This document shows, one piece after another, positions 479 through 44,674 of a stretch of DNA of 64,000 nt (its first letter is position 1; every line of letters starts with the position of its first letter). Source of the DNA: a virus; IMG/VR virus record IMGVR_UViG_3300009514_000001, positions 47,894 to 111,893 of that record; one strand, given 5' to 3'. The notes under the pieces are model-generated. The model worked only from the letters and a program-made list of their open reading frames with translations. It was not told the DNA's origin and made no database searches. Made by a program: the position numbers and the translations under genes.

Positions 479-956
479 GCGAACGATGGACAGGCTGCAC
501 CACTACGGACGAGATGACTCCGGGGCTCTCTACGAGCTGGCGGTAATCTCTCGTCGTAGGGGTGACCGGGCGCCTTGGGGCGTCGCTGTCAGCCGTCTCG
601 TCGTTCTTGAGCAGTGGAATCTGCTCGCCGATGCCTTTTTGGGGAGTCCACTTCCCTGGCTCCGGTCGTATTATCCAGTAACAGGGCGCTGTGCCTCCTC
701 ATGGAAAGTGGCAGCACGGTGCCTCCGGGCCCTAGAAGGCCCGGACTGGTGGCTCTGGCTCCAACAGCATTCACTGGACTCTTGCGTCGCCGGTATCCTA
801 CATGGCGACGACCGGGACCTCAGCGAGGCTGTCAGGGCCGACTGGAACCGGCTTCTTGCCGAAGGCGTCAGCCAAAGGATTCTCGCCAAGGGCAAGAGAG
901 GACCGGTTCTCTGGGTTCGAGTCCCAGTTCCTTCACTGGACACGAGGATGCGATGA
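468..956 (+). CDS. hypothetical protein
   Basis: ATG at 468 (alternative 486) overlaps the upstream stop; its stop overlaps the next start (ATGA). Confidence 0.6.
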   Translation: MTSERTMDRLHHYGRDDSGALYELAVISRRRGDRAPWGVAVSRLVVLEQWNLLADAFLGSPLPWLRSYYPVTGRCASSWKVAARCLRALEGPDWWLWLQQHSLDSCVAGILHGDDRDLSEAVRADWNRLLAEGVSQRILAKGKRGPVLWVRVPVPSLDTRMR

Positions 957-1687
957 AACACGTTCTGCCCGAAGACACGACCGAGAAAGAGTTCCCCCGC
1001 CAGTTGGCCGCCATCCTGGCGAAAGCCTCGGACGGTGACGAGATCGAGCTGCCGACCAATGAGCTGTGCCAGGTGGCCGCCGAGACCCTCAGGGAGGACT
1101 ACCCCAACAAGCAGAATATCCGCCTGATCAGCCAAGAACCAATTCCCGTGTTCCAAGCCCCGGGCGGCGGACCCATGGTGCTCATCGGACCACCGCCGTG
1201 GCTCCAGGGAGAGGGAGACAACGACACTCCCCTGGCCGGCTCACCTCTCAGAGACTACGACGCCTGGATTCAAAAGCTCCAGGAGGACGGCCGGGTCCCA
1301 AGCGAAGAGGACGTCCAGGAGTGGCGGGAAAGGGAGGCGAGCATCCGAGGCCACGAGACCTGGATGGCCGGCTGGTTCGACAGCATGATTCACGGGTTCA
1401 TCATGGCGGGCAGGGAGGAAGGGACCAACGAGTTCCTCGACCGAACCCGCGTCCTTGTCCACCAGAGCGCCCTCGTTGTAGGACACCTGATGGAACTGGC
1501 TCGCCAGGCTGCCAACCGGGAGGAAGGAAAGGGACCCGAAGTCCTTCAGGAGCTTCGGGACCTGATGCGCGACGGTATCCGTTCGGGCATCTCGGACACC
1601 TCCAACTGCCAGTGCCCGAGCTGCGTTCAGCGACGCGAGGAAGAAGCCCGCGCCGCCGAAGCCGCTCTGGATGAGGATGGGGATTGA
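953..1687 (+). CDS. hypothetical protein with C-terminal CxCxxC motif
   Basis: ATGA coupling at 953; protein-like sequence MKHVLPED...CQCPSC. Confidence 0.7.
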   Translation: MKHVLPEDTTEKEFPRQLAAILAKASDGDEIELPTNELCQVAAETLREDYPNKQNIRLISQEPIPVFQAPGGGPMVLIGPPPWLQGEGDNDTPLAGSPLRDYDAWIQKLQEDGRVPSEEDVQEWREREASIRGHETWMAGWFDSMIHGFIMAGREEGTNEFLDRTRVLVHQSALVVGHLMELARQAANREEGKGPEVLQELRDLMRDGIRSGISDTSNCQCPSCVQRREEEARAAEAALDEDGD

Positions 1688-1697
1688 CAGGTTGTCG

Positions 1698-1842
1698 CAG
1701 AGTCCGCGCGAGCGGAGATGAGCCCGACCCCTGCTGCGGGACCGGTGGGATGCTCGCGCCTACCCCACATGCGTGGGGATGAGCCCGTACCCTGGTCTGA
1801 TGCGAAGCCCGAGTCCGCTCCGCACACGCGGAGATGATCCCC
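1698..1842 (+). CRISPR. degenerate type I-E-like CRISPR mini-array (3 repeats, 2 spacers); no cas genes in the window
   Basis: 29-nt repeats at 1698-1726, 1759-1787 and 1814-1842, each with a 5-6 bp GC stem, a 4-nt loop and a GATGA(G/T)CCC 3' end; first period 61 nt (29+32), second spacer 26 nt. Confidence 0.65.
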
Positions 1843-1844
1843 TC

Positions 1845-2873
1845 CTAGAGGTCGCCGAAGATTTGGCCCCACCAGGGAGCGATATCCCACTTGGTCTTCA
1901 CCACATGGTGGTGGCCGATGACACCGCGGAACGTGCTGGCTCCGCCTTTGCCCGTGAGAGCCTCACGGGGGATGACCCCGTGGTAGGGCTCGCCCGTCTC
2001 CTCCAGGCCGTCCTTGCCCCTGGGGATGCGGAACGGGATGCCGAGCGCGGCACAGAGGTCCTCTGTCAGCTCCCTGGCCGCCTTGGCCAGTCGGGGCTCC
2101 AGGGTGACGATCTTGTCTCGACCCCGAGGATTGGGGTTGTCGACCAGCTCGACGTTCCACCCCTTCTTCTTGAGCTTCTTGAGCCACTTCTCCGTCGGCT
2201 GCTGACAGATGTCCAGACCGACGGACCGGCTGTTGGCCCCCGCCGCGTGCCAGGCCCGGTGGATGGTGTCTAGGAACTGGTAGAAGTAGACCTGGTCCTC
2301 CGCGACCTGCAAGTCCAGGCCGCCGTGGGAGGACACGTTGCGCTTGTCCGAGACGATGTTGCCCTTCTTGTCGAACTTGGCGTTCTCGAAGACGTTGAAC
2401 AGGGACTGGGCTGAAAAGGCGCCCCAGTGCCAGACGATGTAGTCGATGCCCTGACCCAGCTTACGGCCCTCGTTGTAGTCCTTCTCCCGGTGCAGGTCGA
2501 GGCCGCCCCCATCATTGAAGTTGATGAACTGGTAGCTGCGGCCCTCGGGAAGGGCGATCTCCTGTCCGTCGTGAATCAGACGGTTCACCCACGGACCCAC
2601 TTGTTTGAGGTGGTCGCCGTAGTTGTCCTTGATGGCCCTCCAGGTCCCGTTACCGAGTTTGCCGTCCCAGTCCTCCTCGTCCTCGAACACGGCCCTCTGG
2701 ATGTCGTGGACGGCCTCGGCGAACGCGAGACTACTCGGGTCCTGGGCAAGGTCTGGAAAGGCCTCCAGAGCCGCAAGGGGCATCTTGTCGTAGAAGTTCA
2801 GCTTGGCTTCGGCGCGCTCGTTGAAGTCGGCGGCCTTCTTCGGGTCGTACCCGAATTCCATCAGGTCACTCAT
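1845..2873 (-). CDS. N-acetylmuramoyl-L-alanine amidase (Amidase_2-like) with a peptidoglycan-binding-like motif; putative endolysin
   Basis: IVWHW, SSH, AWHAAGANSRSVGLD, VIGHHHV..K.D motifs; DGKLGNGT motif. Confidence 0.8.
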   Translation of the reverse strand: MSDLMEFGYDPKKAADFNERAEAKLNFYDKMPLAALEAFPDLAQDPSSLAFAEAVHDIQRAVFEDEEDWDGKLGNGTWRAIKDNYGDHLKQVGPWVNRLIHDGQEIALPEGRSYQFINFNDGGGLDLHREKDYNEGRKLGQGIDYIVWHWGAFSAQSLFNVFENAKFDKKGNIVSDKRNVSSHGGLDLQVAEDQVYFYQFLDTIHRAWHAAGANSRSVGLDICQQPTEKWLKKLKKKGWNVELVDNPNPRGRDKIVTLEPRLAKAARELTEDLCAALGIPFRIPRGKDGLEETGEPYHGVIPREALTGKGGASTFRGVIGHHHVVKTKWDIAPWWGQIFGDL

Positions 2874-9812: not shown

Positions 9813-9974
9813 CTCCCAATTGGTCCGCACTGGCTGTCCAATACTCCGGTTGTATAGGAGGCATATCATGCCAGCAGATTCCACATTTGAACAACGACGC
9901 ATCGCCCGCCGAGTGGCGGACGCCTACTTCAGAGCCCATCCCGCTGCGCCACGTGACAACAGGGCCATGCTCAG

Positions 9975-10235
9975 GAGTCAAGGTTATCGAAGCGGACCGA
10001 TGGTTTCCCAGCTCGAAGACGTGTTCTGGGTGCGGGGAAGTAAAGTCTGACTTGAGTTTGTCGGACCGGACGTACGAATGTTCGGGGTGCGGTCTCAAAC
10101 TAGATCGAGACCTGAACGCCGCAATCAATTTGAAGCAGTTGGCCGGGAGTTCGGCGGTATCAGCCTGTGGAGAGGACGTAAGACCATCAGGAGAGCTTGC
10201 TCACCTGATGGCGACCTCGATGAAGCAGGAACCGG
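9975..10235 (+). mobile_element. tnpB: IS200/IS605-family tnpB remnant (C-terminal zinc finger and RuvC-III) with probable omegaRNA/right-end region
   Basis: DRWFPSSKTCSGCG...YECSGCGLKLDRDLNAAINL; GCCTGTGGAG...GAAGCAGGAA tail; 5' part of the gene absent. Confidence 0.85.
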
Positions 10236-10260
10236 ACAGAGGAAAAAGTTCTGGAGAACG

Positions 10261-10288
10261 GGTCCAGTTGACTCCTCGCGGTCGTATA
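10261..10288 (+). promoter_or_regulatory. putative promoter, GGTCC-N14-GGTCGTATR
   Basis: same motif and spacing at 17185-17212 and 32414-32441, each shortly upstream of a start codon. Confidence 0.7.
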
Positions 10289-10324
10289 TAGGTATAAGAC
10301 CTATTCCGTCGCAAGGAGAAGACG

Positions 10325-11065
10325 ATGACGAACGCCAACAGTACCCTCACAGCCGCCGCTCTTTCTGATGCAGACAACGATGCGCTCACCCGCATCATCA
10401 CGCGCAAGAAAGGCATCTCCCGAGGCAAGGGAAACAACCGCAAAGTCTACGGAGACGACCTGGTCGAAGTCCTCGTGGTGACCGGCTTCGACTATCACGA
10501 GGTCGTCGAGCGCTCCTGGCAGGAGCTGAAGAACCTCGACATCAACGACGTCGTTGGAGAGCTTTCCGGACGTCTCGACGGCGAAGGCAACCCCATCACC
10601 CGAGACGACATCGGCGCCGCGATGAAGGAGCTGCAAGCCAGCTTCTCGGCCAGCCTCGACGGCCGCAACCACGCCTCGACAGAGGGTAACTTCGAGACCC
10701 TGGAGGTCGACGGACAGAAGGTTCGAACAGTCAAGGTCTACAAGGGCCCGAAGACGGGGCAGAAGCGGGCCACCGAGGGTCTGGCACCGGGGACCATCTA
10801 CATCCACGGCCTCAAACTCTCAGAGAAGGTCCTGGAGCCAGCAGCCAATGGGCCCAAGCCCAAGAGCAATTCCTCGGCGAAAACCATCGCCAAGCGGTTC
10901 GTTCGTGGTAAGCTCTCGGTGGGTTCCTACGTGAGCTACGAGCTGCCTCCCGAAGGCAAGCCGTTCATCGTTCGTCCAGGAGGGACGACCCCGTTCCATT
11001 CGGACGGCAGTCGCATCCGGTTCCGCAACGCCACCGTCGAAACCCTCTTCGGTATTGCAGGGTGA
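10325..11065 (+). CDS. hypothetical protein
   Basis: AAGGAG RBS; 246-aa ORF downstream of the promoter motif. Confidence 0.8.
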   Translation: MTNANSTLTAAALSDADNDALTRIITRKKGISRGKGNNRKVYGDDLVEVLVVTGFDYHEVVERSWQELKNLDINDVVGELSGRLDGEGNPITRDDIGAAMKELQASFSASLDGRNHASTEGNFETLEVDGQKVRTVKVYKGPKTGQKRATEGLAPGTIYIHGLKLSEKVLEPAANGPKPKSNSSAKTIAKRFVRGKLSVGSYVSYELPPEGKPFIVRPGGTTPFHSDGSRIRFRNATVETLFGIAG

Positions 11066-11096
11066 GTACGACCCCGCATGAGCGGGGATGTTCCCA
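11066..11096 (+). CRISPR. solitary type I-E-like CRISPR repeat unit
   Basis: GTACGACCCCGCATGAGCGGGGATGTTCCC: CCCCGC/GCGGGG stem, 4-nt loop, GATGnnCCC end. Confidence 0.55.
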
Positions 11097-11106
11097 AACG
11101 GGAACA

Positions 11107-11196
11107 GGTCATTGACCGCTATTGACCTCCTCCGCGAGCACGGAGATTCCCGGTCATTGACCGCTATTGACCTCCTCCGCGAGCACGGAGATTCCC
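11107..11196. repeat. perfect 45-bp tandem duplication containing a degenerate repeat-like hairpin
   Basis: GGTCATTGACCGCTATTGACCTCCTCCGCGAGCACGGAGATTCCC x2. Confidence 0.95.
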
Positions 11197-11740: not shown

Positions 11741-12853
11741 GTCTCCGAAGAGGTCGAGTATGCCGCCCTCGGAGGGCGCCGCGGAACGTTCTTCGTTGAG
11801 TTGGAAGAGTCGGTCGAGTAGTTCATCCTCGACTGGTCGTGTCCAGCATAGCTCGGAACGTCGAGGTCGTCCCACCCGTAGCTTCTGAGGACCTCCATCT
11901 CTTCGTGGAGCTGTTGAAGCGGGTAGTTCGCCGGCCTTGATAGTGTTGTAGAGCTTGATAGTGTTGTAGAGCTTCGTCAGGACCTGGTTCCTACGTCCTG
12001 AATGTGGACGGATTCACGCTGGCTCCGGAAGAGCGTGACGCCCTTATCGACAAGGACCCGAGGAACGCCCAAAGAATCTTCCCCTACATCGGAGGAAAAG
12101 AGGTCAATAGCTCACCGACTCAAGACTTCCATCGATACATCATCAACTTCGGCCAGATGTCGCTGGAAGAGGCCGAACAGTGGTCAGACCTGGTTGAGCG
12201 GCTGAGAAGACTCGTCAAACCGGAGAGAGATAAGCTCAAAAGAGACAATTACCGACTACTCTGGTGGAGGTTTGGAGAGCCCCAAGTAGGCCTCTACCGC
12301 GCCCTCTCCGGACTACATCGTTGTTTGGTTACGGCTGCGACTTCGAAGCATGTGATGTTCTCGTTTCAGCCGGCGGGGAGGGTGTTCGGTCACGTCCTCT
12401 ACGTGTTCCCTTTGGAGTCGTGGACGGCCTTCGCGGTGCTCCAGTCTCGGGTCCACGAGTACTGGGCTCGCATCATGGGCTCTTCTCTTCAAGGAACTTC
12501 CCGCTATACGGCGGAGACCTGCTTTCGAACCTTCCCCTTTCCTCGTGAGGACCCCAAAGAGGTCATCCTCTCGGAAGGCATCGGACAGCGGCTCTATGCC
12601 GCCCGAGCCGAGTGGATGACCTCGAATCAGAAACGAAACTCAGACCCTTGTTGGCCCCCAACGGGAGGGGGTCCGGGCGCTCCGGAGCCCGACGTAGACG
12701 AGAGTTCAGCGCGGCCGTCACTGGGTCCGGGCGCTCCGGAGCCCGACGTAGACGAGAGTTCAGCGCGGCCGTCACTGCGGCCGTCACTGGGTCCGGGCGC
12801 TCCGGAGCCCGACGTAGACGAGAGTTCAGCGCGGCCGTCACTGCGGCCGTCAC
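11741..12853. pseudogene. rearranged copy of the stand-alone MmeI-like TRD gene: N- and C-termini on the minus strand, central part (about 11983-12633) inverted onto the plus strand
   Basis: piecewise high similarity to 48658-49632; the C-terminal part has indels and has lost its stop codon. Confidence 0.85.
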
Positions 12854-12855
12854 TG
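12669..12855. repeat. three tandem copies of a 54-bp unit with nested 12-bp duplications (encodes VTAALNSRLRRAPERPDP on the minus strand)
   Basis: units start at 12669, 12723 and 12789. Confidence 0.95.
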
Positions 12856-13557
12856 AAGGGTCTGTCGAGATTCCGCCAGGTCACTCCTGGTCCTAACCAC
12901 CCATTCCACCACTTCGGCAACCAGCTCGTCCTGGGTCTTCGTGGCATCCAGAATGACCCTCCCTTTGCGGGGAGTGTTCGAGTAGGGGCCTTCGACCAGG
13001 TCGAGATAGGCCTGGCGGTACTGGGCGAGCTGGTCAGGAGTCTCGAATGAATCCGCTTTTCGACCGGCCTGGATGCGCTCGTAGGCCACCTCTGGAGCCA
13101 GGTCCATGACCAGGAGGAGGTCGGGAACTGGGCAAATCTGCGTGGCCTCGAACCAGATGCGCTGCCGCAGACCGTATATCCCTCCTTGGGCCGGCATGCG
13201 CAACGCCTGATAGACGATGGTGCTGTGGTAGTAGCGGTCCGTGACGATGACTTCGCCGCGCTCCAGGGCCGGACGGATGACCCGACGGGCGTGCTCGGCA
13301 CGGTCGAGCATGAACAGCCAGTACTCCTCCAAGGGGGAGTAGCGCTCGTCCCTGCTCTCACAGAGAAGCCTGCCGAACTTCCCGTCGCGGGTCGGCTCCC
13401 TTGTCTGGGATGCTGGAAGGCCCTTTTCCCGGAGGGCGGGGACCAGGTTGTCCACGAGGGTGCTCTTGCCCGCGCCGTCCATACCCTCAACCACGACCAA
13501 CATGCCGTGGCCCACGACACCGGCAGGAACCGGCTGACCCGTCTTCATCATCGCCAT
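12850..13557 (-). CDS. tmk: thymidylate kinase
   Basis: VVEGMDGAGKST P-loop, TREP, DRAEH, DRYYHSTIVYQ, PDL. Confidence 0.95.
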   Translation of the reverse strand: MAMMKTGQPVPAGVVGHGMLVVVEGMDGAGKSTLVDNLVPALREKGLPASQTREPTRDGKFGRLLCESRDERYSPLEEYWLFMLDRAEHARRVIRPALERGEVIVTDRYYHSTIVYQALRMPAQGGIYGLRQRIWFEATQICPVPDLLLVMDLAPEVAYERIQAGRKADSFETPDQLAQYRQAYLDLVEGPYSNTPRKGRVILDATKTQDELVAEVVEWVVRTRSDLAESRQTLQ

Positions 13558-17227: not shown

Positions 17228-17712
17228 GACCACCCTCGGAAAGTGAAACGACTGCTGAGAGAGCGATACCGTTCTAAACGGGACAGTTCCTTGGGAGTCG
17301 TCCAGCGGCGCAAGCCGCCTAACGCGCCCCACCGTTGGGCCGGAAGCTTACTACCAGGGTACGACCGCCAGGTCGGACTGGCACAGCTTCAAATTCGATA
17401 CCTAGCTTTGCCTAGGTTTTGAAGAACGGTTGGAAGGGGTTGCCCTCAGCCTCACGAAGTCACGTCTGACGGTACTTTTCGAGGCCGAGGACTTGTAAGG
17501 GGGGTCGGCAAACCCTCCGCCAACTAAAAGTCACCCCCTCTGACCCCATGCAGAATTAGTAGGCAAACCCCCTCTAGACCCCCACGGCCTAGTTCGCCTT
17601 TGTTTCTAGAGACTTACAACACAGGAAGATCCGAAAAGTCGTCTCACTAAGTCGAGGTGGCTTCTCCGGGTCGTTTCGGGCATATTGCCTCAAAACCGCC
17701 AGGGGCAAGGGC
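17228..17712 (+). ncRNA. candidate large structured non-coding RNA of unknown class
   Basis: about 590-nt gap without a credible ORF; many nested complementary segments and GNRA-like loops (see findings). Confidence 0.65.
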
Positions 17713-21229: not shown

Positions 21230-24200
21230 TCACATGTCCTCCGGGAGGAACTCGCCCCACTTGGCCCTCAGTTCCTCGGGACCATTTTGGCGTGAGGAGA
21301 AGCGACTCAGGATGTCCTCTGAGGGCCACTCGACGTCTGGTAGGTCTTGGGCCAGGAGCTGGTCCGCCTCGACGTCAGAAAGCCACGAGGACGTCCTCTC
21401 GGTGAAGTCTTCGCTGGGGATGCAACCCTCGGTGACGAACCGACTGGGCTTGCTCCTAATCGTAACCCCCTTCTTGGTGGTACCCAAAACGTCGGGCCGG
21501 ACAATGGTCACCGAATCCTCGCCGCGGGTTACGGCCACGTAGGCCAGGCGGCGCTCGGACGCGATGTCTTCCTCAGACTCCGAATTCGGGTGTGGGAAGC
21601 CGCCGTGCCCAGGACCACCCCCCTCCCACATGGGGACGAACAGATGGGGAGCCTCCAGGCCCTTCCATCCGTGGACGGTGTCGAGCTGAACGGCATTGAC
21701 CGCAGCGTCGAAATCGGGGTCATTCGGGTTGTCAGACTTCTGGAGCTTGGCGTTGGCTCGCTCCAGTTCCGACATGTAGGACGCGAACTCGTCGATACTG
21801 GGGTATGACGAAGCGGCTGTCTTCAGGATGGTCAGAGGGCCTAGAGCATAGTCCTCAATGGCCTGCTCCAGGGTGACATCCTCAGTCCCCTTGAGTGCGC
21901 TGGCCGAGACATCCTCCATCGCCTTAGCGTCGTTCTTGACCCGCTCGACGAGGTTGTCGGTGATGCTCTTGTCGTCCTGACCACCCTTGCGGTCAAGGAT
22001 GTAGTTGAGCAGCCCCTGGGTGTCGAGAGGAGTGTCTCGATCTTTGCTGCTGAGGAGAGTAATCTCCTGGAGATAGTCGGCGAAGGGCTTGACGTACTCC
22101 CGGTTGCGTCGCCGTGCACGGCCGACGTAGACCTCATCCCAACCGCCACCGAGGAGCCAGGCCAGGAGGTTCTTACCTCTCGCCTTGGAAGCCGCCTTCT
22201 TGAAGGTGTTGATTGAGATGCCCCAGTTCAAAGACCTGAGGGCATCCAGGACCAGGGGGTCGACCCTCTTGGCCGGCTCCGTGAGAGCCGAAGCCCCCAT
22301 ATTGGAGAGTTGCATCAGACTCAGGACGGACTTGGCCGGGCCCTTGAAGAAGTTGTACTTGGACCGGAACGGGATGCCGAGCTGAATCATGGCAACCCCG
22401 TACTCGTAGGCCTCGCGGTTGGTCCTCACGGCAATGCCGAAGTCCCGGGCCTTGAGAGAAGCATCGTCACCCTGAACCTGGTCGGCGATGGCCTGAGCAA
22501 CGTAGGGACCGAGGGCCTCCCGGGACGGAACCGTGACCTCTCGGATGCTGCCCTCACCCTTGCGTTCGACGTTCGCCTGGCAGACCATCTTGATCTGCTT
22601 CTCGTTGTGGGCAATCATCTGGTTCGCCGCGTCGACGATGGCCGAGCCGGACCGATAGTTCATCCGCAGAATCTTCGTCTCGAACCCTTCGCCGCCGGGA
22701 GTCAGGTCCGACTTCTCGATGAAGAGGTCGGGGTCAGCTCCGCGGAAGCTGTAAATAGAGTTGTGTGAGAGGATGCCGTTGGCGAAGAAGTTGGAGGCGT
22801 CTTCAACATCCAGGTCGACGAACTTGGTGTCCTCCGTCCGATTTACGGCGACCACCTTCTCTTGGACGATGGTGTACTGGGCACCTTCCGGAAGGTTGGG
22901 TCCGCTGATGGCCCTCCCCTTGAACATGGGGACCAACACCGGAACTGTCATACCGGGCTTGACCGCGGACGCCGTCACCAACCTCATCGGTCCCTCAGGG
23001 GTGCTCAAGCGCCGGGACAGCATTGCCCCGGTCCGTTGCACGACGTCCTGGGCAAATGCGAGCGCGTCGCGATAGTTGGCGAACCACCGGCGAAGACGGT
23101 TGCGTCCTTGGGCGGTCCTCACAAACCGCACCCCCTCCAGGCAGTCGTCCAGGTCGTAGCCGGTCCACTCCATCGCTACCTGAGTGTTCGCTCCAGAGTG
23201 GGCAATCATGTTGAGGGTACGACGCTTTCGTCCGTGTTTTGTGTAGCTCCGTGACATCCAGTTGGGCAGGTCGAAGCTCAGGTTGCGTGCTTCTAGTAGC
23301 CTCCCGCCGTTCCTTCCGAACTCCCGGAACAAGGTCTCGATACGGTCCTGGTTGAGACCCCTATGCACTCCGTTGAACACTGCGGTGGGGATTCCGTAAC
23401 GGAGACTGTACTGAGTCTCTTTCAGGAGGGCCTTTTCGCGGTCCTCACAGACATCGATGACCCAGAGCTTCTCGGCCTTCTCCAGAAAAGCTCTCCCACC
23501 GAAATGGTTGAGGTACTGGGTGTCCTTACCTTTGTTGGTGACACCTACCCGGAACCCCATATCCCGGCGCCACATCAGATAGACGATGTGCTGGCCGCCC
23601 TCAGTGATGATGTCTCCGACCCACAGCTTATGGTTGGGTGACATCAGGAGGTGCTGTCCACCCTCGGTGATGACATCCAACCCCCAGGTCCACGACGATT
23701 TCACAGCATGACGTACCTTCTGGGGGACGACTTTGCCGTTGCGGTAGGAAAGGACCACGTCCCCCGGCTGAATAGCCGAGGCGTGCTTGCTGTTTCCTCC
23801 TGGTGTTGCAATGACCGAGTTGGCGGCCACGCACTGCTTGTCGTCTCCAATCAACGCCAGGGTGTCGGCTGTCATGTCTCCGTCTTCCCGTGGCTCCTGT
23901 GTTTCAGGGTCGTAATACCCAGCAACCAGGCCGACAAATAGGTGTTGGCTGTTGTGCGAGAGGATGTCTCCTCCGAAGAAATTGGACGCTCTCTCGACCT
24001 CAATATCGAAGAACTCACCTCCATCGACGAGGGCAACCTCCTCAATTATCTCCAGCTCCACAGAGGATTCGCGCAGAGGAGGCAACGGGTCCTCGGCCCT
24101 TCTAAGCTGCTCTTTCCGCATTAGAGTGTGAAATTTTTCTCTCGCCCCCTTACCCATCCCCGAGCAGTCAATGCCGAGACGAGAGGCCAGTCTTCGGTAC

Positions 24201-27200
24201 TCGGACAAGGGGAGGAGTTCGGAATACCTAACATCTACCAACCCGCCAGTCTTCACTACCGGAACGGCCATGCCAGGGAACAGAGAGGAGGCTGTGGTAA
24301 GGGGGAGTTTTTCTCCTCCAATCCTTAGGTTGTCCAGAAGAAAGGAACCGTTTGTCTCAGCGACTTTCTCTGCCAGCTTACGAGCTTCGACATAGGAAGG
24401 AACCAACTTGTTAAAGGTACGACGACCCCCTTTGACCACATAGGTTGCTAGCCCGCAGCTATCTACGTCGTCTCCAGACCATGACATCGAGACCCTAGAA
24501 CCGACTTGATACCGGACAGACCGATGAGCATTGAGAGAAACGACCCTTCGAACCTCCTTGCCCCTAGTACTCGTCTGATTGACCCAATGAGGGTAGTCAA
24601 AGTAGAGATCATGGGCCTCCAGTATCCGTCGTCCGTTATGTCCGAACTCCAAGAACACCCCGTTGATACGCTCCTGGTTACACCCCCGAACAGAGCCCCG
24701 AACAGAGCCCTCGTAGAGGTAGGTCGGAACCTGGTAGCGAAGGGAGTAGAGCTGTTCCTTGAGGAGAATGTCCTCCTCTTCACCCACTTCCAAGAGCCAA
24801 GCGCGATCTGCCCTTTCTGAACCAGCCCTACTTGAGGAGCCTCCCGCACTTCGAGAAAAAGGACGAGTCGAGGCACCGATACGAAAACCGAGGTCCTCCC
24901 GGTACATGAGGTAAAGACCCATTTGACCCTCGGGAAGGAGGCCTCGGAAAGGGGTCGCATAGATGCGGTGGTTGGGGGACATCACCAGCTCACGTCCAGA
25001 GGAGGTGGTGATACGATATCCCCTCGACCAGTTGCTCTTTTTCTTGGCCAACACCCTGTTGTAGACCACCTTTCCATTCTCGAACGAGAGGACTGAGCCG
25101 CCCACCTGGACATCACGGATGGCCTTCTCCCCTTCCGGAGTGTAGACGAGGGTCGACCCTAGGACGCAAGCATTCAAATCCTGAGCTTCGTCGACGACGA
25201 CCATTTTGAACCGACGTTGGATGCGAGTCCGCACGTTGCGGTTCTCAATCATCATCTTCGAGGCGCCGATGAGCATGTCATCGAAGTCGCCCTGGCCCTC
25301 GTACTCGCTGGCGTTTCCCTTGAGCCACTCGTAGGCCCCGTAGACTGCCGCATAGATGGAGGCGTTAGACTGGCTGAGTGCCCCGTCTCTGGCCCCATCC
25401 TGAACAGCCTTGCCGTGTTCCTCGTGAGCCGCCTTGCCAGGGGCCAGAAGCTGGCCCTTGGTCTTTGAGACGTAGAGGGCGAAACGACCAATGGGGATGG
25501 CCGACTTGGAGTCGCCGGACCCTTCATGGAAGTCATCGTCCCAGGAGGCCCCCAAGTTGAACCACTGGTTCGCCGGCTGCTCTCCCCAGATGGGATTCTT
25601 GCTCTTGACCCGACCTGACCACGGGGGCTCGTCGGTTTCATCACGGGCGGTCCTTAGGACCGAACTTGTAGTCGCCACAGAAGCGAGCTTGTAGTGGCCC
25701 CACCCCCGACGTTGGAGGGCTCGACGGGTACCTCCGCGCTCATTCTGGTCGGAGGTGACGGCATAGCCCAAGGCACGGTTGATGAAGTCCTTCTGCTTCT
25801 GAGTCATCTTGGTGGGGTCGACAGGACTCGACTTCCACTTCTGAATGATGGATTGGGACTGGCGGTTCCACCTACTTGGACCGTACTTGCCTTCGTTCCA
25901 TTTCAGGAAGTCCATGACGGCAAGAAACACTGAAGAAAGCTCGTCGATTCGCTCTTGGGACTCGTCGACATCGCCCTGCACCTTGGGGAAGAAGGTGGCT
26001 TCCGCGTCGGGCTGGGGCCAGGAGTCCTGCGAGGGCATCATGAGAACCTGGAGGATGGACAGACGAACCAGCTCGGCCTGGTCATATCCTGAGATGATCT
26101 TGCCACCTCTCCTCTTGCCGTAGGTCATACCCATCTTCAGAGCGACGCTGTGGGTCGTCCCGAAGCCTGACTTGCCCTGGCGGTCGGCGTCGATATCGCC
26201 GCCGTAGTTCTTGACGCGCTCAATAAGCTCGGCGCTCGACTTCTTCGTGAAGGAGCAGGCCAGAATCTGGTTGGCCGTCAGACCCACCTCGTTCATATGG
26301 TAGACGATCTTGCCCGCCAGAACTCTCGTGTTGTGAGAGACAACACCGTTCGCAAGGAAGCTGTGCGTTGTCGGGACCGTGAAGTCATAGACCCGGTGGG
26401 TACCCTCCACACGACGCACCGACACCACCTCGTCAAGGCACATGTCGGAGAGCTTATGGAGAATAGCCGCCTCTGGTCCTTCTGCACCTTTCACGAGACG
26501 TTTGAGTTGCGCCCTTGACGGAGTTCGGTTGCCGAGCAAGTAGTGCTTGACCTGGACCCATCGGTCATCCATCAACAGCGACTGAGACTTCCCGTGCCAT
26601 CTACCGGCTTGCTTCCACCACTCTCGGACACCTTTGAGAAGGTCTCCTACATGGGGTACTCCGATGTTGGGGTTGCAGTCCTTTGCGCACAGACTATTCA
26701 GGTCATCGGCCTTCTTGAAGTCGTATCGGAACCCAACGACCTCCCGGAACCCCCGGAGCTGGTCACCGCTGATGAGGATGCGCCAGTACGTGTGGTCGTA
26801 CCCCTCAACATGCTTGGGCTTGAGCATTCCTACAACGCCGAGGCCCAGGAGCATCTGGTGTACCTGACGGGCAAGCGTCTCTGAGGCTGACAACCACTCG
26901 AAAGAACGGTCTCCAGTAGCCGTGCCGTCTGTATCAAACAGACCCTGCAAAAACCTGATCCTCTCCGCGTCGGAAGAGGACAGGAGCCACGCTGGGACTA
27001 TCTTGTCTCGCGCGGAGGAGAAGAACATTCCCTGCTGACGGAGACGCTCCTGAAGTGAGGCACTCCAAAACGTGTGAGTAACGCTCTTCATGTCCTCTTT
27101 GGTTGTCTCTTTGGTTGTCTCTTTGGGTTGCTCGCCCCAGAATTTCTGGGCTAGGCGATAGAAGTGAGAAGGAAGGAAGTCGCCCCCACGAGACCAACAA

Positions 27201-28465
27201 ACTCTGGTCTTCTTCGAATCACACCAACCATCACCCATGAACATGCCCAGGAGGTATGCCTCTTCCGGGTCGACGTTCTCCTTTCCCGTGTCAAGAGCAT
27301 ACCCAGGCTTGAGGACTACGAACTGCCCCTCTTTCATGACATCGAGACGCGTCCACACGGATTGCCCGTCCCAAGTCAGGAGAGGGTGCTCTGGAGTCCC
27401 TCGTAGGCGGATGCCTGAACGAGTTTGGACTTCGATGACCTTGCTCTCCCCCATGTCGAGCCAGGTGGCCTTCTCCAGAGTTGTGTCCAGGGTTTCCGGA
27501 TTGACCGACTTGACCCAGTCCTTTCCACTACACTGATCTAGGCGGAAGGTACCACCCTCAAGTGCCACAAGGGCATCTCCCGTCAGGCATTTGCCCGATC
27601 CCGCCCCGGCTGCAATGACAGCCCGGCCCCGAACCAGCATCGCATCCTCCTGCTCCGGAGAGAGGTTGATGTGTTTGCCAGTCTGTGTCCTGAATTCCTG
27701 GGCGGGGGGGATGGACTTCGAGGCCGCCACAGCCGCTACTGAGGTAGGAGCTTGGCTCGTCTCGACGACCTCTTCGATGCGAGCGTTCAGGGCCGCTTTT
27801 CGCTCCTTGAGAGCTACGGAGCGAGCTTCTGTGGGGTCTGTGGAGGAGATGGCCTGCTTGACGTCTGCGACCTTCTCAGCCAGTATCGCAACCGTCTCGG
27901 CGTCCGACTGGGCCTCTTCGGTCTCGCTCAGTCCGGCGCCGAGGTTCTGTGCCGCGACCTTGACCCAGTTGCGTGGCTTGACGATGCCACTGACGGCCGG
28001 GATGGCTGCCAAGGCCCTCAGGACGGCCGCCGGGTCTTCCAGCTTCGAGGCATGGAGAACGCCCTTGACGGCGGCTCGGGAGCGACCCGTGAACACACTG
28101 CGTAGGACGTCTGCCTTGTTGACCAAACGACTGAGAGCTGTGGTCAGGAAGTCTACCTGAGCGAAGACGACGACGTCGGCGCGACCTTTGGCCCGCTTCG
28201 CCTTGTTCATCTTGCCCTTGACGCCACCAATGCGTCCCTCCTCGACCAAGGGATACATGTGCTTCTTTAGGTTGGCCTCCATCTCCTTGCGATAGAGACG
28301 GGCGATCTCAAAGCCCCGCTTGAGATGGTCGTCGCGACCGCGGGCTTCCATACCTCGGGCGTAAGCCCCGAACCCAACCCAGAAGACACTGAGGTCCACC
28401 AGGCGGTCTGGTGTAGTCACATGGTCGCTGCCTTTCTTCTTCGCCGCTGCTTCGCGAGTAGTCAT
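21230..28465 (-). CDS. uvrD: UvrD/PcrA-like SF1 helicase with three inteins and a long N-terminal extension
   Basis: AGAGSGK|T, SFTKK, VDEAQD, IGDDKQ|SIYSFRGA, NYRS, TVHGWKGLE, ERRLAYVAVTR. Confidence 0.92.
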   Translation of the reverse strand: MTTREAAAKKKGSDHVTTPDRLVDLSVFWVGFGAYARGMEARGRDDHLKRGFEIARLYRKEMEANLKKHMYPLVEEGRIGGVKGKMNKAKRAKGRADVVVFAQVDFLTTALSRLVNKADVLRSVFTGRSRAAVKGVLHASKLEDPAAVLRALAAIPAVSGIVKPRNWVKVAAQNLGAGLSETEEAQSDAETVAILAEKVADVKQAISSTDPTEARSVALKERKAALNARIEEVVETSQAPTSVAAVAASKSIPPAQEFRTQTGKHINLSPEQEDAMLVRGRAVIAAGAGSGKCLTGDALVALEGGTFRLDQCSGKDWVKSVNPETLDTTLEKATWLDMGESKVIEVQTRSGIRLRGTPEHPLLTWDGQSVWTRLDVMKEGQFVVLKPGYALDTGKENVDPEEAYLLGMFMGDGWCDSKKTRVCWSRGGDFLPSHFYRLAQKFWGEQPKETTKETTKEDMKSVTHTFWSASLQERLRQQGMFFSSARDKIVPAWLLSSSDAERIRFLQGLFDTDGTATGDRSFEWLSASETLARQVHQMLLGLGVVGMLKPKHVEGYDHTYWRILISGDQLRGFREVVGFRYDFKKADDLNSLCAKDCNPNIGVPHVGDLLKGVREWWKQAGRWHGKSQSLLMDDRWVQVKHYLLGNRTPSRAQLKRLVKGAEGPEAAILHKLSDMCLDEVVSVRRVEGTHRVYDFTVPTTHSFLANGVVSHNTRVLAGKIVYHMNEVGLTANQILACSFTKKSSAELIERVKNYGGDIDADRQGKSGFGTTHSVALKMGMTYGKRRGGKIISGYDQAELVRLSILQVLMMPSQDSWPQPDAEATFFPKVQGDVDESQERIDELSSVFLAVMDFLKWNEGKYGPSRWNRQSQSIIQKWKSSPVDPTKMTQKQKDFINRALGYAVTSDQNERGGTRRALQRRGWGHYKLASVATTSSVLRTARDETDEPPWSGRVKSKNPIWGEQPANQWFNLGASWDDDFHEGSGDSKSAIPIGRFALYVSKTKGQLLAPGKAAHEEHGKAVQDGARDGALSQSNASIYAAVYGAYEWLKGNASEYEGQGDFDDMLIGASKMMIENRNVRTRIQRRFKMVVVDEAQDLNACVLGSTLVYTPEGEKAIRDVQVGGSVLSFENGKVVYNRVLAKKKSNWSRGYRITTSSGRELVMSPNHRIYATPFRGLLPEGQMGLYLMYREDLGFRIGASTRPFSRSAGGSSSRAGSERADRAWLLEVGEEEDILLKEQLYSLRYQVPTYLYEGSVRGSVRGCNQERINGVFLEFGHNGRRILEAHDLYFDYPHWVNQTSTRGKEVRRVVSLNAHRSVRYQVGSRVSMSWSGDDVDSCGLATYVVKGGRRTFNKLVPSYVEARKLAEKVAETNGSFLLDNLRIGGEKLPLTTASSLFPGMAVPVVKTGGLVDVRYSELLPLSEYRRLASRLGIDCSGMGKGAREKFHTLMRKEQLRRAEDPLPPLRESSVELEIIEEVALVDGGEFFDIEVERASNFFGGDILSHNSQHLFVGLVAGYYDPETQEPREDGDMTADTLALIGDDKQCVAANSVIATPGGNSKHASAIQPGDVVLSYRNGKVVPQKVRHAVKSSWTWGLDVITEGGQHLLMSPNHKLWVGDIITEGGQHIVYLMWRRDMGFRVGVTNKGKDTQYLNHFGGRAFLEKAEKLWVIDVCEDREKALLKETQYSLRYGIPTAVFNGVHRGLNQDRIETLFREFGRNGGRLLEARNLSFDLPNWMSRSYTKHGRKRRTLNMIAHSGANTQVAMEWTGYDLDDCLEGVRFVRTAQGRNRLRRWFANYRDALAFAQDVVQRTGAMLSRRLSTPEGPMRLVTASAVKPGMTVPVLVPMFKGRAISGPNLPEGAQYTIVQEKVVAVNRTEDTKFVDLDVEDASNFFANGILSHNSIYSFRGADPDLFIEKSDLTPGGEGFETKILRMNYRSGSAIVDAANQMIAHNEKQIKMVCQANVERKGEGSIREVTVPSREALGPYVAQAIADQVQGDDASLKARDFGIAVRTNREAYEYGVAMIQLGIPFRSKYNFFKGPAKSVLSLMQLSNMGASALTEPAKRVDPLVLDALRSLNWGISINTFKKAASKARGKNLLAWLLGGGWDEVYVGRARRRNREYVKPFADYLQEITLLSSKDRDTPLDTQGLLNYILDRKGGQDDKSITDNLVERVKNDAKAMEDVSASALKGTEDVTLEQAIEDYALGPLTILKTAASSYPSIDEFASYMSELERANAKLQKSDNPNDPDFDAAVNAVQLDTVHGWKGLEAPHLFVPMWEGGGPGHGGFPHPNSESEEDIASERRLAYVAVTRGEDSVTIVRPDVLGTTKKGVTIRSKPSRFVTEGCIPSEDFTERTSSWLSDVEADQLLAQDLPDVEWPSEDILSRFSSRQNGPEELRAKWGEFLPEDM
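22760..23833 (-). mobile_element. intein 3 in UvrD (motif III), 358 aa, non-LAGLIDADG insert
   Basis: CVAANS...SPNH...SHN|S. Confidence 0.92.
23951..25168 (-). mobile_element. intein 2 in UvrD (after Walker B), 406 aa, non-LAGLIDADG insert
   Basis: CVLGST...SPNH...SHN|S. Confidence 0.92.
26330..27589 (-). mobile_element. intein 1 in UvrD (Walker A), LAGLIDADG type, 420 aa
   Basis: CLTGD...SHN|T; LLGMFMGDG and FLQGLFDTDG blocks. Confidence 0.95.
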
Positions 28466-36034: not shown

Positions 36035-39000
36035 CCATCAACTCGACGAAACGACCGCGGTCGACCAGGACCGGCTCGGGGAACCATCCGTCAAGGGGTA
36101 CCCCATCGGGGGCGAACAGCTCCAACCGGAACCCTTCGGGGTCGTGGGACCCTACGATGGCCTGGGCGATTCTCTCCCCCTCCTCCTCGTCTACCTTCGA
36201 GAGTCGGTACGGGATGACTCGGCTTTCCAGAGAATCCTCCGCGGGTCCCTTTGGGACTCCCTGGGAACCCGAATGGAACATGTCCCAGGCCCTCGCCAGA
36301 GCCGCTTTCTCCTCCTCTGTCAGAGGGTTCTCGCGGTCGTGTCTGCCGCTCTCGAAGTAAGGTTCGAGGGTCGGTGGCCACCTGATGTCCTCGAAGGACC
36401 CAAACTTCCCTTTGACGTCCTCAGAGTTTCCGTAGAACCCACGGACACGACGTAGGAGGGCCCAAATCTGGTCGTCGTCGAGCCCTGGCTGCTGAAGCTC
36501 TCTGCGCAGGCCGACAGCATACCGGAAGGCCGTCATGTTGTGTTTGACCGTCCAGTTCGGACCAAGCTCGACGTCCACAGTAAGGGGGACCGCCCAATTT
36601 CTGCCTAGGATGATCGGGTTGGATACCATCAACCCGGAGAACAAGTCGCAGGCTTCCTCAAGGATGTCATTGCGGATCTCAAACACCAGCTCATCGTGCA
36701 TGGTGATGATCATCCGAACCTTGTCCTGCCACTTTCTCCTGCGGACCTCCTTGTAAATGAGACCCATCGCCAGTTTGGTGATGTCAGCGCTCGACCCCTG
36801 AATCGGGCTGTTCACTGCGTTGCGTTCCGCCTTGGCCCGGATGAACCTCTCTTCGTGCTTGATATCGGGGAGCGGGAACTTGCGCTGGAACGCCGTGATG
36901 ACGTAGCCGTGGTCCTTGGCGAACTTACGGGTTCTCTTCCACCACTCTTGGAGGGAGGTATATGCCTTCTTGAACTGGTTGGCGATGCGGTAGGCCTCGT
37001 TCTCACCACACCCGGTGTTGCGGTGGATGGCCTTCGGCCCACCCCCATACGAGAGGGCGAAGTTGGCGCTGTTGTGGACCACCAGGCCATTGGTCCAGTA
37101 GACGTTGGGTTCCGCAACATGAAGGTCGACGACGTTCGACGTGCCAGCAGGCAGGATGACCCTGACCTTATTTGCCCCTGTCGCGGACTTGTATTCCTTG
37201 GCCTCGCGGAGACGACTCCGCTTCATCGGGTGGCGAAGATAGGCGTAGAGCCCCCAGGCCTGTGAGGCCCGAATGTGTGTCCGCACATACCACCTCTGAT
37301 AGGTCTTGTTGAACGTCGGTTCCACACACGGAGTCATACCAAGGGCGTGACACACTGCGACCAACTGACCCGAGAACACGAAGTCCTTGGAGGTCCATGA
37401 CATGCGGCCGTCCTCTCCGACCGTCCCATCCGTGTCGACCAGACCGCCGAGGAAAGACCACAAGGCTGTGGGTCCGCGACCCAGAACCCAGTCCGGAATC
37501 CGAAGGCATCTCTTACCCTCGACTCCTTCGACGAGCCCAAGAGCAGACAGGAAGCGCATCGTGTGACGACTGCCCAAGTAGACCAGCTGGTCCTTTCGAG
37601 TCGGCAGGAATCCCACCTTCTCGCAGGACTCGACGATAATGTCCTGCCAGGTCTTGTAGGGCAGTCCGAGCTGGTCGACCTTGTCGACGTGGCCATGAGT
37701 GATTGACACGGAAGTCGACCCCTGCTTCGCCCCGTCGCCAGAGAACATGCCGGCGAAATAGGCCATGTCGGGGGACAATGACACCCCCATCTCAGGCAGG
37801 TTCTTGTAGGGTCGATACCCGACTCTACGCCAGGGTTTCGTCTCCACATAGGGAGTTCCAACGGGTTCTGCGAGGACATCGCCTGTGTCGAGGCCCTGTT
37901 CGATAGACTTGAACGTCCCATCGGCCAGGAGAAAACGATGCTGAGCGGTACAGGTCAAGAGGCCTCGACGGGAGACCACATGGTAGACCTCTTGCTCCCC
38001 TCCCTGGTAGGTCTCCAAAAGACGCAGCTCATCCTCTTCGCCGTCCTGGCCGGTAAACACCGTCCCAGGATACTTGAGGAACGTGTCGGGCTCCTCCGCG
38101 AACTTCAAGGAGCCGATGCGCCGGAGAGCCCCGCTCATACCGAGGATGCTGTCAGGGTGGACGCACTTGCCCTGTTTCCTCTTTTCTTTCCAGTCCTTAC
38201 GCCTCTGAGCGGACTCCCCGAAAATCTGAATGGCGGTCAGAGTGTGGATGTCCCCGATCTTGTCCTCGCCGCATTGGGGGCAGAAGAGGGGAGGGGCTGG
38301 GGGTGTGGTCTTGCCGTCTCCCCGGTCGAACTCCAGGTCACATGCACTGCACCGGAAAAACGCGTCAATCCACTTCTTCTCGCCGGAGAGATTGGCGGCC
38401 AAACGCAACTCGACGCCACCGAAATCGATAGCGACCATGGTCCACCCAGTGGGAGCCACGATACACTCACGAATCCTCAGCAGTGCCGGAGGCCTATTGG
38501 TGTCGTAGGTCGCAGGCATTGACTGGAGGTTGAACCGGGTCCCCCCTGTCTTCGCCGGCTCCCTCTCTCCCTTCGAGCTGAAACGTCCTGTCGCTGTAGC
38601 GAACTGGCGGAACCCGATCTTGAGAGTGTTGTCGTGGCGGTAGGTGTCCTCGAAGATGGCGTAGAGCTTACCGAGGGCGTTCTGGTTGCCGCGCATCCAC
38701 TTGATGCGATTGACGAATGGGTAGTCGTGGATTGAGTTCTCGATGACCTCTTCCAGGACTTCCTTGCCGGTAGCCACCTGGCCACTGGGGGTCTTCTTCA
38801 GACCTGGAACAGCCAGGTCCCACATGAGCGTCCCGAGCTGGGCCGGCGCAAGGACGTCGTAGCTGTCCTTCAGTTCGACGCCCTTGCGCGGGGGTGGTGC
38901 TTCCCGAGCAATCAGCTCGCCGAACTTCGGTGCGTCCAGGACGATGCGGAGACCTCCCTTTCCTGAGTGGTTGGCGACGGACACTTGGCCCGTCTGACAC

Positions 39001-40124
39001 ATCTTCAGGACGCCGAGGTCCTGTCGCTGGAACCGCTTTTGGAACTTCTTGGCCTCCCCCCGAAACCGGTCGACCATAGCCTGGAAGGTCTCTCCAGTGT
39101 CGTCCGTGACTGCCATCTCTGGGTTGGTCACCTCGATGTACAGGGACATGAGGTAGAACGACAGAGGCGTGATGTCGCGCTCCAGGATGTCGGAGGCCCC
39201 TCGATACACCTCCTTAACGGCCTTGTAGAGGTCCCCCTGGCCGAGCTGAATCAACTCAGCCACCTTGGCCAGGTCGATGTGGAGGCGATTGCGCTCCATC
39301 CAGCGGACACTAGGGAGGCAGAGCTTCTCGACCTTGTGGATGAACCCCTGGCTATGGGGTCGATTTGTGCTCTCGTTCTTGCTTGTCAGAGCAAGGGCCT
39401 TCTTCTTGAGCTTCTCATAGAGCTGGAGAGTGCAGATGGCGTCGGCCGCAGCGTACTCCAAGATGCCTGGGTCGGTGGGGTCCAACTCAGCGAAGTTCAG
39501 GTCCTTCGTCTTGGGCGGGAACAGCTCCTTCAGCTCGATTTGCTTCTTCCCCAGGAGGGCGTCTGACATCACCTTGAGGGTCTTCGCTCGACGGGTGCTG
39601 TCATCGAGGTAGGCCAGGATGAGGACGTCTTCCCAGGAGTCTGGGTTGTCCCACGTGCCGTACGGGAGACCCCCGTTGTAGGTCATCAACTCGCCCTCGA
39701 ACTTGCAGTTGAAGACGAGGGGGACTGACCTGTCCTTGCCCTTGCGCTTCATGCCCTCCATCAGTCGACGGACCTCGGCATCGAACTCGTGGAAAGGGAC
39801 GTTGTGCTCTGACGGCTCGTCGTTGGGGCAGTGACGGACTGGGATGTAGTAGCCGGTCTTGGTGTTCGGGGACAGACAAAGACCGACGATGTCGCAGTTG
39901 GTCTTGTACTGCGTCCCTTCTGGAGTCTCCCGAGGGAACACGCGGGTGTCGAGGCCTGTGGTCTCCAGGTCGAGGGCGTAGTAGGGCTTCGACAGACACT
40001 CGTCGATGACCTCGCGCAGCCTGGCGCCGGTCGTAACCAGCTCCATGCGGACCTTCTTCATCCACGGATGGAGGGCGACCTCAATCTTGGGCTTGTCCAG
40101 GAACCCGGCATCAAACAACGACAT
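36027..40124 (-). CDS. polA: family A DNA polymerase with 3'-5' exonuclease, zinc-finger insertion and one intein
   Basis: LDLETTGL, YAAADA, TATGRFSS, NLQSMP, DFGGVELR, K|SANFALSYG, NSPIQGSSADI, MHDELVF. Confidence 0.95.
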   Translation of the reverse strand: MSLFDAGFLDKPKIEVALHPWMKKVRMELVTTGARLREVIDECLSKPYYALDLETTGLDTRVFPRETPEGTQYKTNCDIVGLCLSPNTKTGYYIPVRHCPNDEPSEHNVPFHEFDAEVRRLMEGMKRKGKDRSVPLVFNCKFEGELMTYNGGLPYGTWDNPDSWEDVLILAYLDDSTRRAKTLKVMSDALLGKKQIELKELFPPKTKDLNFAELDPTDPGILEYAAADAICTLQLYEKLKKKALALTSKNESTNRPHSQGFIHKVEKLCLPSVRWMERNRLHIDLAKVAELIQLGQGDLYKAVKEVYRGASDILERDITPLSFYLMSLYIEVTNPEMAVTDDTGETFQAMVDRFRGEAKKFQKRFQRQDLGVLKMCQTGQVSVANHSGKGGLRIVLDAPKFGELIAREAPPPRKGVELKDSYDVLAPAQLGTLMWDLAVPGLKKTPSGQVATGKEVLEEVIENSIHDYPFVNRIKWMRGNQNALGKLYAIFEDTYRHDNTLKIGFRQFATATGRFSSKGEREPAKTGGTRFNLQSMPATYDTNRPPALLRIRECIVAPTGWTMVAIDFGGVELRLAANLSGEKKWIDAFFRCSACDLEFDRGDGKTTPPAPPLFCPQCGEDKIGDIHTLTAIQIFGESAQRRKDWKEKRKQGKCVHPDSILGMSGALRRIGSLKFAEEPDTFLKYPGTVFTGQDGEEDELRLLETYQGGEQEVYHVVSRRGLLTCTAQHRFLLADGTFKSIEQGLDTGDVLAEPVGTPYVETKPWRRVGYRPYKNLPEMGVSLSPDMAYFAGMFSGDGAKQGSTSVSITHGHVDKVDQLGLPYKTWQDIIVESCEKVGFLPTRKDQLVYLGSRHTMRFLSALGLVEGVEGKRCLRIPDWVLGRGPTALWSFLGGLVDTDGTVGEDGRMSWTSKDFVFSGQLVAVCHALGMTPCVEPTFNKTYQRWYVRTHIRASQAWGLYAYLRHPMKRSRLREAKEYKSATGANKVRVILPAGTSNVVDLHVAEPNVYWTNGLVVHNSANFALSYGGGPKAIHRNTGCGENEAYRIANQFKKAYTSLQEWWKRTRKFAKDHGYVITAFQRKFPLPDIKHEERFIRAKAERNAVNSPIQGSSADITKLAMGLIYKEVRRRKWQDKVRMIITMHDELVFEIRNDILEEACDLFSGLMVSNPIILGRNWAVPLTVDVELGPNWTVKHNMTAFRYAVGLRRELQQPGLDDDQIWALLRRVRGFYGNSEDVKGKFGSFEDIRWPPTLEPYFESGRHDRENPLTEEEKAALARAWDMFHSGSQGVPKGPAEDSLESRVIPYRLSKVDEEEGERIAQAIVGSHDPEGFRLELFAPDGVPLDGWFPEPVLVDRGRFVELMDG
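37071..38165 (-). mobile_element. LAGLIDADG intein in polymerase motif B, 365 aa
   Basis: CVHPD...VHN|S; FAGMFSGDG, FLGGLVDTDG. Confidence 0.95.
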
Positions 40125-40133
40125 ACACACCCC

Positions 40134-44659: not shown

Positions 44660-44674
44660 GAATGAGGCGCTCCG

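Follow-up and report, generated by a model that had tools for sequence, protein, structure and literature searches.

Viral CRISPR arrays that turn host Cascade on its own expression are a published strategy, described only lately and demonstrated for the most part in a small number of cultured genera. Cracr arrays redirect host Cascade to cas promoters and titrate Cascade; 16 two-spacer arrays of type I-E are reported, one Cracr array lowers casA mRNA by about 30% and allows phage to plate again, and the reported target phyla are Pseudomonadota, Bacillota and Actinomycetota (Liu et al., 10.1101/2024.10.29.618823). Among the mini-arrays of Shmakov et al. (10.1101/2023.03.03.530964), an array from a prophage of M. 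osloensis contains three repeats along with a pair of spacers that are mostly identical. Racrs are defined as single repeats with no partial repeat within 100 bp, and I-E members have been tested (PMC10651486). Huge phages with type I-C systems lacking cas1 are known (PMC7162821; PMC11656645), and cas-less phage arrays with host-like repeats have been noted in huge phages (PMC7162821). Type I-E is among the CRISPR subtypes of myxobacteria, with no such array described in the available part of a myxophage preprint (10.64898/2026.09.14.751636).

The locus compared here lies in a window (the whole stretch of DNA analysed, 64,000 nucleotides) that corresponds to bases 47,894-111,893 of a 222,005-base virus record. 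Like Cracr arrays, its mini-array is phage-borne and has three I-E repeat-like units with 8-nt handles, two spacers of which at least one is shortened, and no cognate cas genes; unlike them, it yielded no CreR or promoter match and belongs to a 222-kb phage with its own type I-C system. It differs from the Salmonella Cracr array (24- and 21-nt spacers) in that its first spacer, S1, is of full length at 32 nt; the words 'jumbo' and 'Myxococc' do not occur in the portions of the Cracr text available (10.1101/2024.10.29.618823). With the viral mini-arrays of Shmakov et al. (10.1101/2023.03.03.530964) it shares stem-loops that are kept while the sequence varies, a truncated phage spacer and a place like theirs behind Acr genes, and with the M. 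osloensis prophage case the three repeats and two related spacers; the worked cases of that study, as far as it was available, are of types I-B and I-F1 with predicted targets, whereas this array is of type I-E, has spacers that are 17/26 alike and 6 nt apart in length, and gave no target. Racrs resemble it in that they mimic repeats from intergenic positions and lack cognate cas genes, a number of them sitting directly behind an ORF, but are solitary, in contrast to an array with spacers and full handles (PMC10651486); here three repeats stand within 145 nt. The likeness to huge-phage CRISPR-Cas (PMC7162821) concerns the neighbouring I-C locus without cas1, not the I-E mini-array; in this phage Cas3 keeps an HD-type motif and there are 24 I-C repeats.

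Because the general strategy has already been published, the surprise is limited; what goes beyond the published kind is the neighbouring I-C system, a second element, and a pair of kindred guides whose lengths differ by 6 nt. If confirmed, the locus would bring such arrays to a 222-kb phage whose host group is likely a different one, and a single genome would hold CRISPR-Cas of one subtype alongside RNAs that inhibit another; this combination was not found in the available portions of the literature searched, whose supplementary tables may hold a case. The related pair of 32- and 26-nt guides also offers a ready test of guide length against Cascade size, and of silencing against cutting.

The mini-array, its repeats and a second element

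The first-pass annotation had placed three 29-nt hairpin repeats, separated by spacers of 32 and 26 nt, in the gap between two convergent genes, and the repeats with the stems read there, both spacer lengths and the position between a + strand stop at 1687 and a - strand gene end at 1845 are all borne out. The layout stands as described; the register does not, since the correct one lies one base to the left, with R1 starting at 1697. The features of the mini-array and of a second element are as follows:

953..1687, + strand: 244-aa orphan ORF; stop 9 nt before R1; 7 relatives at E<=0.001
1697..1725, + strand: R1, I-E-type repeat; 5-bp stem (5/6 pairs), 4-nt loop, handle ATGAGCCC
1726..1757, + strand: S1, 32-nt spacer, homologous to S2
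1758..1786, + strand: R2, I-E-type repeat; 6-bp stem with an A-U pair, handle ATGAGCCC
1787..1812, + strand: S2, 26-nt spacer, aligning to S1 at 17/26 with one 6-nt gap
1813..1841, + strand: R3, I-E repeat with the exact sequence of one from a natural array; handle ATGATCCC
1845..2873, - strand: Amidase_2 gene (PF01510, E 1.7e-8), converging on the array and ending 3 nt after R3
11067..11095, + strand: R4, I-E-type repeat; starts 1 nt behind the stop codon of an orphan ORF (246 aa, 10325-11065)
11096..11124, + strand: S4, 29-nt spacer; holds GGTCATTGACC
11125-11151 and 11170-11196, + strand: a degenerate 27-nt repeat in two identical copies, its handle 6 nt long, flanking an 18-nt copy of the end of S4

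The repeats follow the type I-E plan of 29 nt with a 6-bp stem, a 4-nt loop and an 8-nt 3' handle, R1 having 5/6 pairs; the handle is ATGAGCCC twice and ATGATCCC once. R1-R3 are only 19-20/29 identical to one another, and the hairpin is kept despite this change of sequence, as had been claimed, with 17/18 stem positions paired and a 5-bp stem in R1. The repeats fold into stems of 5-6 bp with a 4-nt loop at z of -2.2 to -3.0; the hairpin probability in the precursor is 0.97 for R2 and 0.19 for R1 (0.59 in its own unit), a low value that is ordinary, as 26% of 222 natural units fall below 0.3. From a canonical I-E array the locus departs in the dissimilarity of its repeats, the relatedness of its spacers, the 9-nt gap to the upstream stop and the lack of I-E genes. 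A degenerate repeat pattern matches the window four times against 0.11 expected, and a hairpin-plus-handle scan finds four sites at two places in 222 kb and none in each of 20 Markov controls; both patterns were written with the repeats already known, so these scans show rarity and not identity, and independent support comes from the match to real arrays.

That match is exact for R3, which agrees at 29/29 with 13/18 repeats of one metagenome contig (L157) and 4/5 of another (L172), both with regular 61-nt arrays; the identity extends to 10 positions that the search pattern had left free, and no cas genes were seen in the fetched DNA of these two contigs. Variants of R3 at 28/29 lie upstream of I-E-type cas3 in 8 loci, and one at 25/29 adjoins Cas6e (L136). 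These loci belong to a metagenome scan with the stem variant common to R1 and R3, which returned 86 loci; 20 of them have a repeat at least 24/29 like R3, and most others are single, chance-looking sites. R2 is 22/29 identical to a repeat beside an annotated Thermus I-E operon, and R1 is 16-21/29 identical to the repeats of six regular arrays; BLAST against plasmids gave 52 records and 319 places (30 Streptomyces, 11 Thermus). Rfam reports no CRISPR-repeat family at the array, and nothing at gathering score in 113,505 bases. In a stem alignment of the four phage repeats and ten natural ones, with rows chosen by hand, stem cells are paired at 98.7% over 13 distinct repeats, and both paired stem changes of the phage repeats are also used by natural arrays; the differences between the phage repeats are thus natural I-E variants and not random decay.

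On sequence grounds the array is a real one of three type I-E repeats, and the earlier type I-E-like label is sustained by the identity of R3 to repeats of regular natural arrays. An intrinsic terminator was considered and rejected, as no terminator-like site or U-tailed hairpin occurs at the array; a REP-like element was likewise rejected, the four full sites lying at two places in 222 kb and R3 being an exact CRISPR repeat. The sole viral match to the R1/R3 pattern (L021) falls inside an ORF and was discarded. Other mini-arrays whose I-E-type repeats diverge, none with a cas gene visible close by, occur at L104:3880-4120 (about four repeats) and, with about three repeats, in L124 (- strand, near 1110-1190) and L129, where one neighbour gene is named Bifidobacterium; in L108, L122 and L171 a second short array with a different repeat stands in opposite orientation, head to head with the main I-E array, between that array and cas3.

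R4 was absent from the first-pass annotation and emerged as the fourth window match of the degenerate pattern. The second element spans 11067-11196 and contains a 45-nt tandem duplication, which may be real or an assembly artefact; a degenerate repeat follows R4 at 29 nt downstream, and 7 bp of pairing are possible between the start of S4 and its own handle (p about 0.04). Both elements stand behind orphan ORFs that are placed like acr genes, and the 244-aa ORF at 953..1687 is an Acr candidate by its position only; it has no Pfam, PADLOC, NCBIfam or PHROG match. The two orphan proteins (244 and 246 aa) show no kinship to each other, and neither gave a usable Atlas match. Since no promoter-like site was found directly before either element, and a sequence scan found no promoter or leader belonging to the mini-array, the transcript of the 244-aa ORF likely covers the array by read-through.

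Spacer kinship and target searches

S1 and S2 are identical at 17/26 bases with one 6-nt gap, a score reached in about 6-7 of 10,000 cases in three nulls: 29/50,000 phage 26-mers, 34/50,000 GC-matched 26-mers and 51/69,430 pairs of natural I-E spacers. Over five aligner settings p ranges from 0.001 to 0.011, for a kinship noticed after the fact among three possible spacer pairs; seven of the first ten bases are identical (p about 0.005), and S4 shows no kinship to S1 or S2. Spacers acquired by Cas1-Cas2 are normally unrelated to each other, so the simplest reading of the pair is a duplicated, diverged guide unit. The length of Cascade changes in steps of one Cas7 subunit per 6 nt. With a 32-nt spacer the complex takes up six Cas7 subunits, and around shortened guides fewer of them come together (PMC5159557). 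The 26-nt spacer had been offered as one that could suit repression or decoy activity rather than interference; this argument fails, as spacers longer than 20 nt still support interference by E. coli Cascade (PMC5159557), and spacer length alone therefore cannot exclude cutting. The kinship of S1 and S2, which the first-pass annotation had not noticed, is a better argument for a regulatory role than the length of S2.

The check named in the first-pass annotation, a search for the targets of S1 and S2 with PAM inspection, found none. In the phage genome itself the best matches are 21/32 for S1 and 20/26 for S2, and PAM-filtered self-matches reach 8-9 counted bases at best, none of them at the phage's own cas locus. 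A 10-nt match of S2 with GAG upstream, in a 164-nt intergenic element, was taken as chance (about 0.6 expected); a second copy of that element lacks the GAG PAM at the S2 match. Viral contigs gave nine loci for S1, the best at 23/32 and none with an AAN PAM, and no loci for S2; cultured phages gave only short spacer matches at chance level. These blank searches weigh little, having been run without a known host genome, and the coverage of the viral collection is poor, since even the I-C array matched no cultured phage.

Host counterparts were sought by a scan of GTDB for a CreR with the handle plus the shared seed, which returned seven loci, of which six lack a hairpin and the remaining one is an ordinary spacer of a Streptomyces array; among 401 genomes of the phylum of that Streptomyces genome there were two matches and no CreR (the same spacer, and one site without a hairpin). 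In 21 loci with I-E-type repeats (148,576 nt) no seed match at an AAN PAM stood out from background; seed runs reached at most 8 for S1 and S4, and at most 11 for S2, at a site that lacks an AAN PAM. One of the natural loci (L134:3995-4150) holds a CreR-like two-repeat unit of the same repeat family upstream of cas3-cse1, and its spacer matches an AAC-flanked site 91 nt downstream over the first 11 bases with a mismatch at position 6; the seed test works where a target exists, as it does there.

The type I-C neighbour and the likely role of the array

The mini-array had been described as Cas-less, which does not hold for the phage: a type I-C locus lies just outside the window, and the suggested look for cas genes elsewhere on the contig recovered cas3, cas5c, cas8c and cas7c by Pfam and PADLOC:

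L002:18979 to L003:7473 (G000:C1 about 37,980-45,470), left of the window: type I-C locus

The cas genes occupy genome bases of about 37,980-43,610 and are followed by 24 repeats of 36 nt; this array ends about 4.1 kb before R1, and cas5c-cas8c-cas7c lie about 6 kb from the mini-array, and GroES is encoded in the interval that separates the I-C array from the window. The I-C spacers mostly have lengths of 34-38 nt, the oddities being one spacer of 7 nt, one of 47 nt and one repeat with an internal deletion. The spacers have no match in cultured phages, and the I-C repeat pattern has no locus in the viral collection. The Cas7 closest to that of the phage is at most 39% identical. In Cas3 the strings HDLGK and GKT are kept, DENQ stands at Walker B, and QxxGRxxR is lacking; we take this to mean that the HD-type motif is present and helicase motif VI is not recognisable. 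No cas1 was found in the phage genome by a family search whose control was positive in 9/14. The I-C repeat agrees with R1-R4 at only 12-15/29, and with this match and most spacers at 34-38 nt the I-C system is an unlikely partner of the mini-array.

The cognate machinery of type I-E appears to be absent, in line with the earlier claim: Pfam gave no I-E match among 150 of 154 ORFs of at least 90 aa (the remaining four being very long ORFs that cross locus ends), and six-frame tblastn of the genome with eight Thermus I-E proteins gave nothing at E<0.3, with Streptomyces controls positive for 5/8. A Cas6e family search of the phage genome was also negative, a weak result as its control was positive in only 1/14 genomes. 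With I-E repeats and no I-E genes found in the phage, the borrowing or titration of host Cascade that had been proposed still seems to be the best reading of the sequence.

The mini-array is a candidate for a phage RNA anti-CRISPR array of the Cracr kind, an assignment given about an even chance. The fit lies in the hairpins kept at varying sequence, the spacers that are related and shortened, and the place right behind an orphan gene. The array is carried by a mobile element, with terminal repeats, outside a cognate CRISPR-Cas locus (only I-C cas genes were found), and has repeat-like units around at least two spacer-like units, often shortened in Cracrs (32 and 26 nt here, 29 nt in the second element). 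Cracrs are further defined by at least 9 PAM-proximal bases shared with a host CreR or CreA, or by a PAM-flanked match to a cas or toxin promoter, and neither was found in the GTDB, 401-genome and 21-locus searches. The full length of S1, the missing promoter target and CreR match, the failure to find a promoter of its own and the absence from distant relatives count against the Cracr reading. If it is correct, host Cas6e would cut at the base of the stems and release RNAs of 61 and 55 nt with 8-nt handles; the two guide-like RNAs would then be taken up by host I-E Cascade, the complex on S2 holding one Cas7 less, and the loaded Cascade would be steered to the promoter of host cas genes or of a CRISPR-guarded toxin, where partial pairing may permit binding without cutting. 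Cascade subunits would at the same time be drawn away from immune guides, the two spacer versions might cover two variants of one host promoter, and the phage's own I-C system would be spared, its repeat being different.

An anti-CRISPR role would also be served if the array were a pure decoy, its repeats soaking up host Cas6e and Cascade subunits in the manner of a Racr and its spacers only setting length. This alternative is unlikely, and jointly with the Cracr-like reading it makes an anti-CRISPR role fairly probable. A decoy would account for the absence of a target in every search and for repeats each of which is a natural I-E variant, as they could cover several Cas6e types; in the second element, seed and handle can pair with each other (7 bp, p about 0.04), and both elements stand just behind an ORF, as RacrIC1 stands 11 nt behind an acrIC5 homologue (PMC10651486). 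Racrs are, however, defined as solitary repeat units (PMC10651486), S1 and S2 share seven of their first ten bases (p about 0.005) as a kept seed would, and a missing target is weak evidence when the host genome is not at hand. Host I-E Cascade and Cas3 may instead be borrowed to cut competing phages or plasmids, which is a known use of viral mini-arrays (PMC11656645); S1 has the canonical length, 26 nt can still interfere in E. coli (PMC5159557), and the collections may lack the competitors of a phage that has not been cultured. Such inter-viral arrays have host-identical repeats (PMC11656645), though, whereas these are 9-10 bases apart and only R3 is identical to a natural repeat; the spacers are related to each other, the best viral match is 23/32 for S1 in nine loci with no AAN PAM and none for S2, and an I-C array of 24 repeats is already there for that job, all of which leaves this use decidedly unlikely.

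It is very improbable that the locus is the decaying remnant of a captured I-E array, perhaps serving now as a hairpin barrier between convergent genes. Decay would break pairs, yet 17/18 are kept and three handles are intact; R3 is a perfect natural repeat, acquired spacers are unrelated where S1 and S2 are related, and no U-tailed terminator stands at the site as a barrier. A remnant would nevertheless explain why there is no leader and no target, why the repeats are unlike each other and were not found in distant relatives, and why the second element ends in degenerate repeats and a tandem duplication, in a genome with other exact tandem duplications. The lowest probability of all is given to the phage's own I-C Cascade, with Cas5c as the nuclease, using the array RNAs to regulate phage or host genes. 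Binding without cutting would fit a Cas3 in which, presumably, helicase motif VI is not recognisable. The genes cas5c-cas8c-cas7c are about 6 kb away, and Cas5 processes crRNA in type I-C (PMC10651486), but the I-C repeat of 36 nt agrees with R1-R4 at 12-15/29, the spacers between its copies mostly measure 34-38 nt, and no seed match occurs at the phage's cas locus, the best PAM-filtered self-matches counting 8-9 bases.

A more elaborate form of the Cracr-like reading is quite unlikely as a whole. It would have the jumbo phage split CRISPR by subtype, running its own I-C system and disarming host I-E with two RNA loci; one guide family would have arisen by duplication, with the seed kept, natural Cas6e hairpins swapped and 6 nt (one Cas7 step) dropped, so that one transcript would give Cascades of two sizes on variants of one host promoter, and the upstream orphan genes would encode new Acr proteins working with these RNAs.

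Relatives, host and genomic setting

The virus record carries a 96-nt direct terminal repeat and has a CheckV completeness estimate of 42%; Pfam matches to Baseplate J, DNA polymerase A and DnaB suit a tailed phage of large size. The named neighbours of its glutamine synthetase are mostly Myxococcales, Myxococcota, Nannocystis, Bradymonadia and Deltaproteobacteria, and a Streptomyces glutamine synthetase is equally close (55% identical); genes near two R3-like repeats are named Bifidobacterium. The 267 spacers from arrays with R3-like repeats match the phage at 24/32 at best, within background. An alignment search with the amidase returned 75 loci at 23-39% identity, and the array repeats are present in 0/75 of these distant loci and 0/20 whole records; closer amidase relatives exist at 78% and 56% identity. 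The amidase alone or Cas7 alone as query gave no viral loci.

The first 39,000 bases of the genome (G000:C1 1-39,000; L001, L002) contain counter-defence and host-like genes: a PARP with a WGR domain, an ADP-ribosylglycohydrolase, SAM lyase-like, GmrSD-like and NYN genes, and genes for glutamine synthetase, HU/IHF and L7/L12. Two complete TnpB-like genes lie at L002:12273-13343 and L009:14037-15293, and a stretch just upstream of the ORF that precedes the second element (window 9887-10291, - strand) is, judged by its zinc-finger motifs, a likely tail fragment of a TnpB gene; besides the two TnpB-like proteins no type V effector was found among 30 ORFs scanned. The 164-nt intergenic element has short inverted ends and occurs in two copies with few differences (window 17268-17431, - strand; and across the genome ends); it has no Rfam match at gathering score and is possibly a small mobile element or a structured RNA. 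Exact or near-exact tandem duplications of 90, 66, 39 and 24 nt occur at L002:1808-1987, L001:8065-8196, L001:5578-5655 and L002:14805-14852, with further repeats near 12.6-12.9 kb of the window (12563-12900); some may be assembly artefacts. Inteins with LAGLIDADG domains interrupt the genes for UvrD, DnaB, SNF2 and a volactin-like actin (window 21233-28465, 41789-44638 and 45613-48651; L008:2446-4560).
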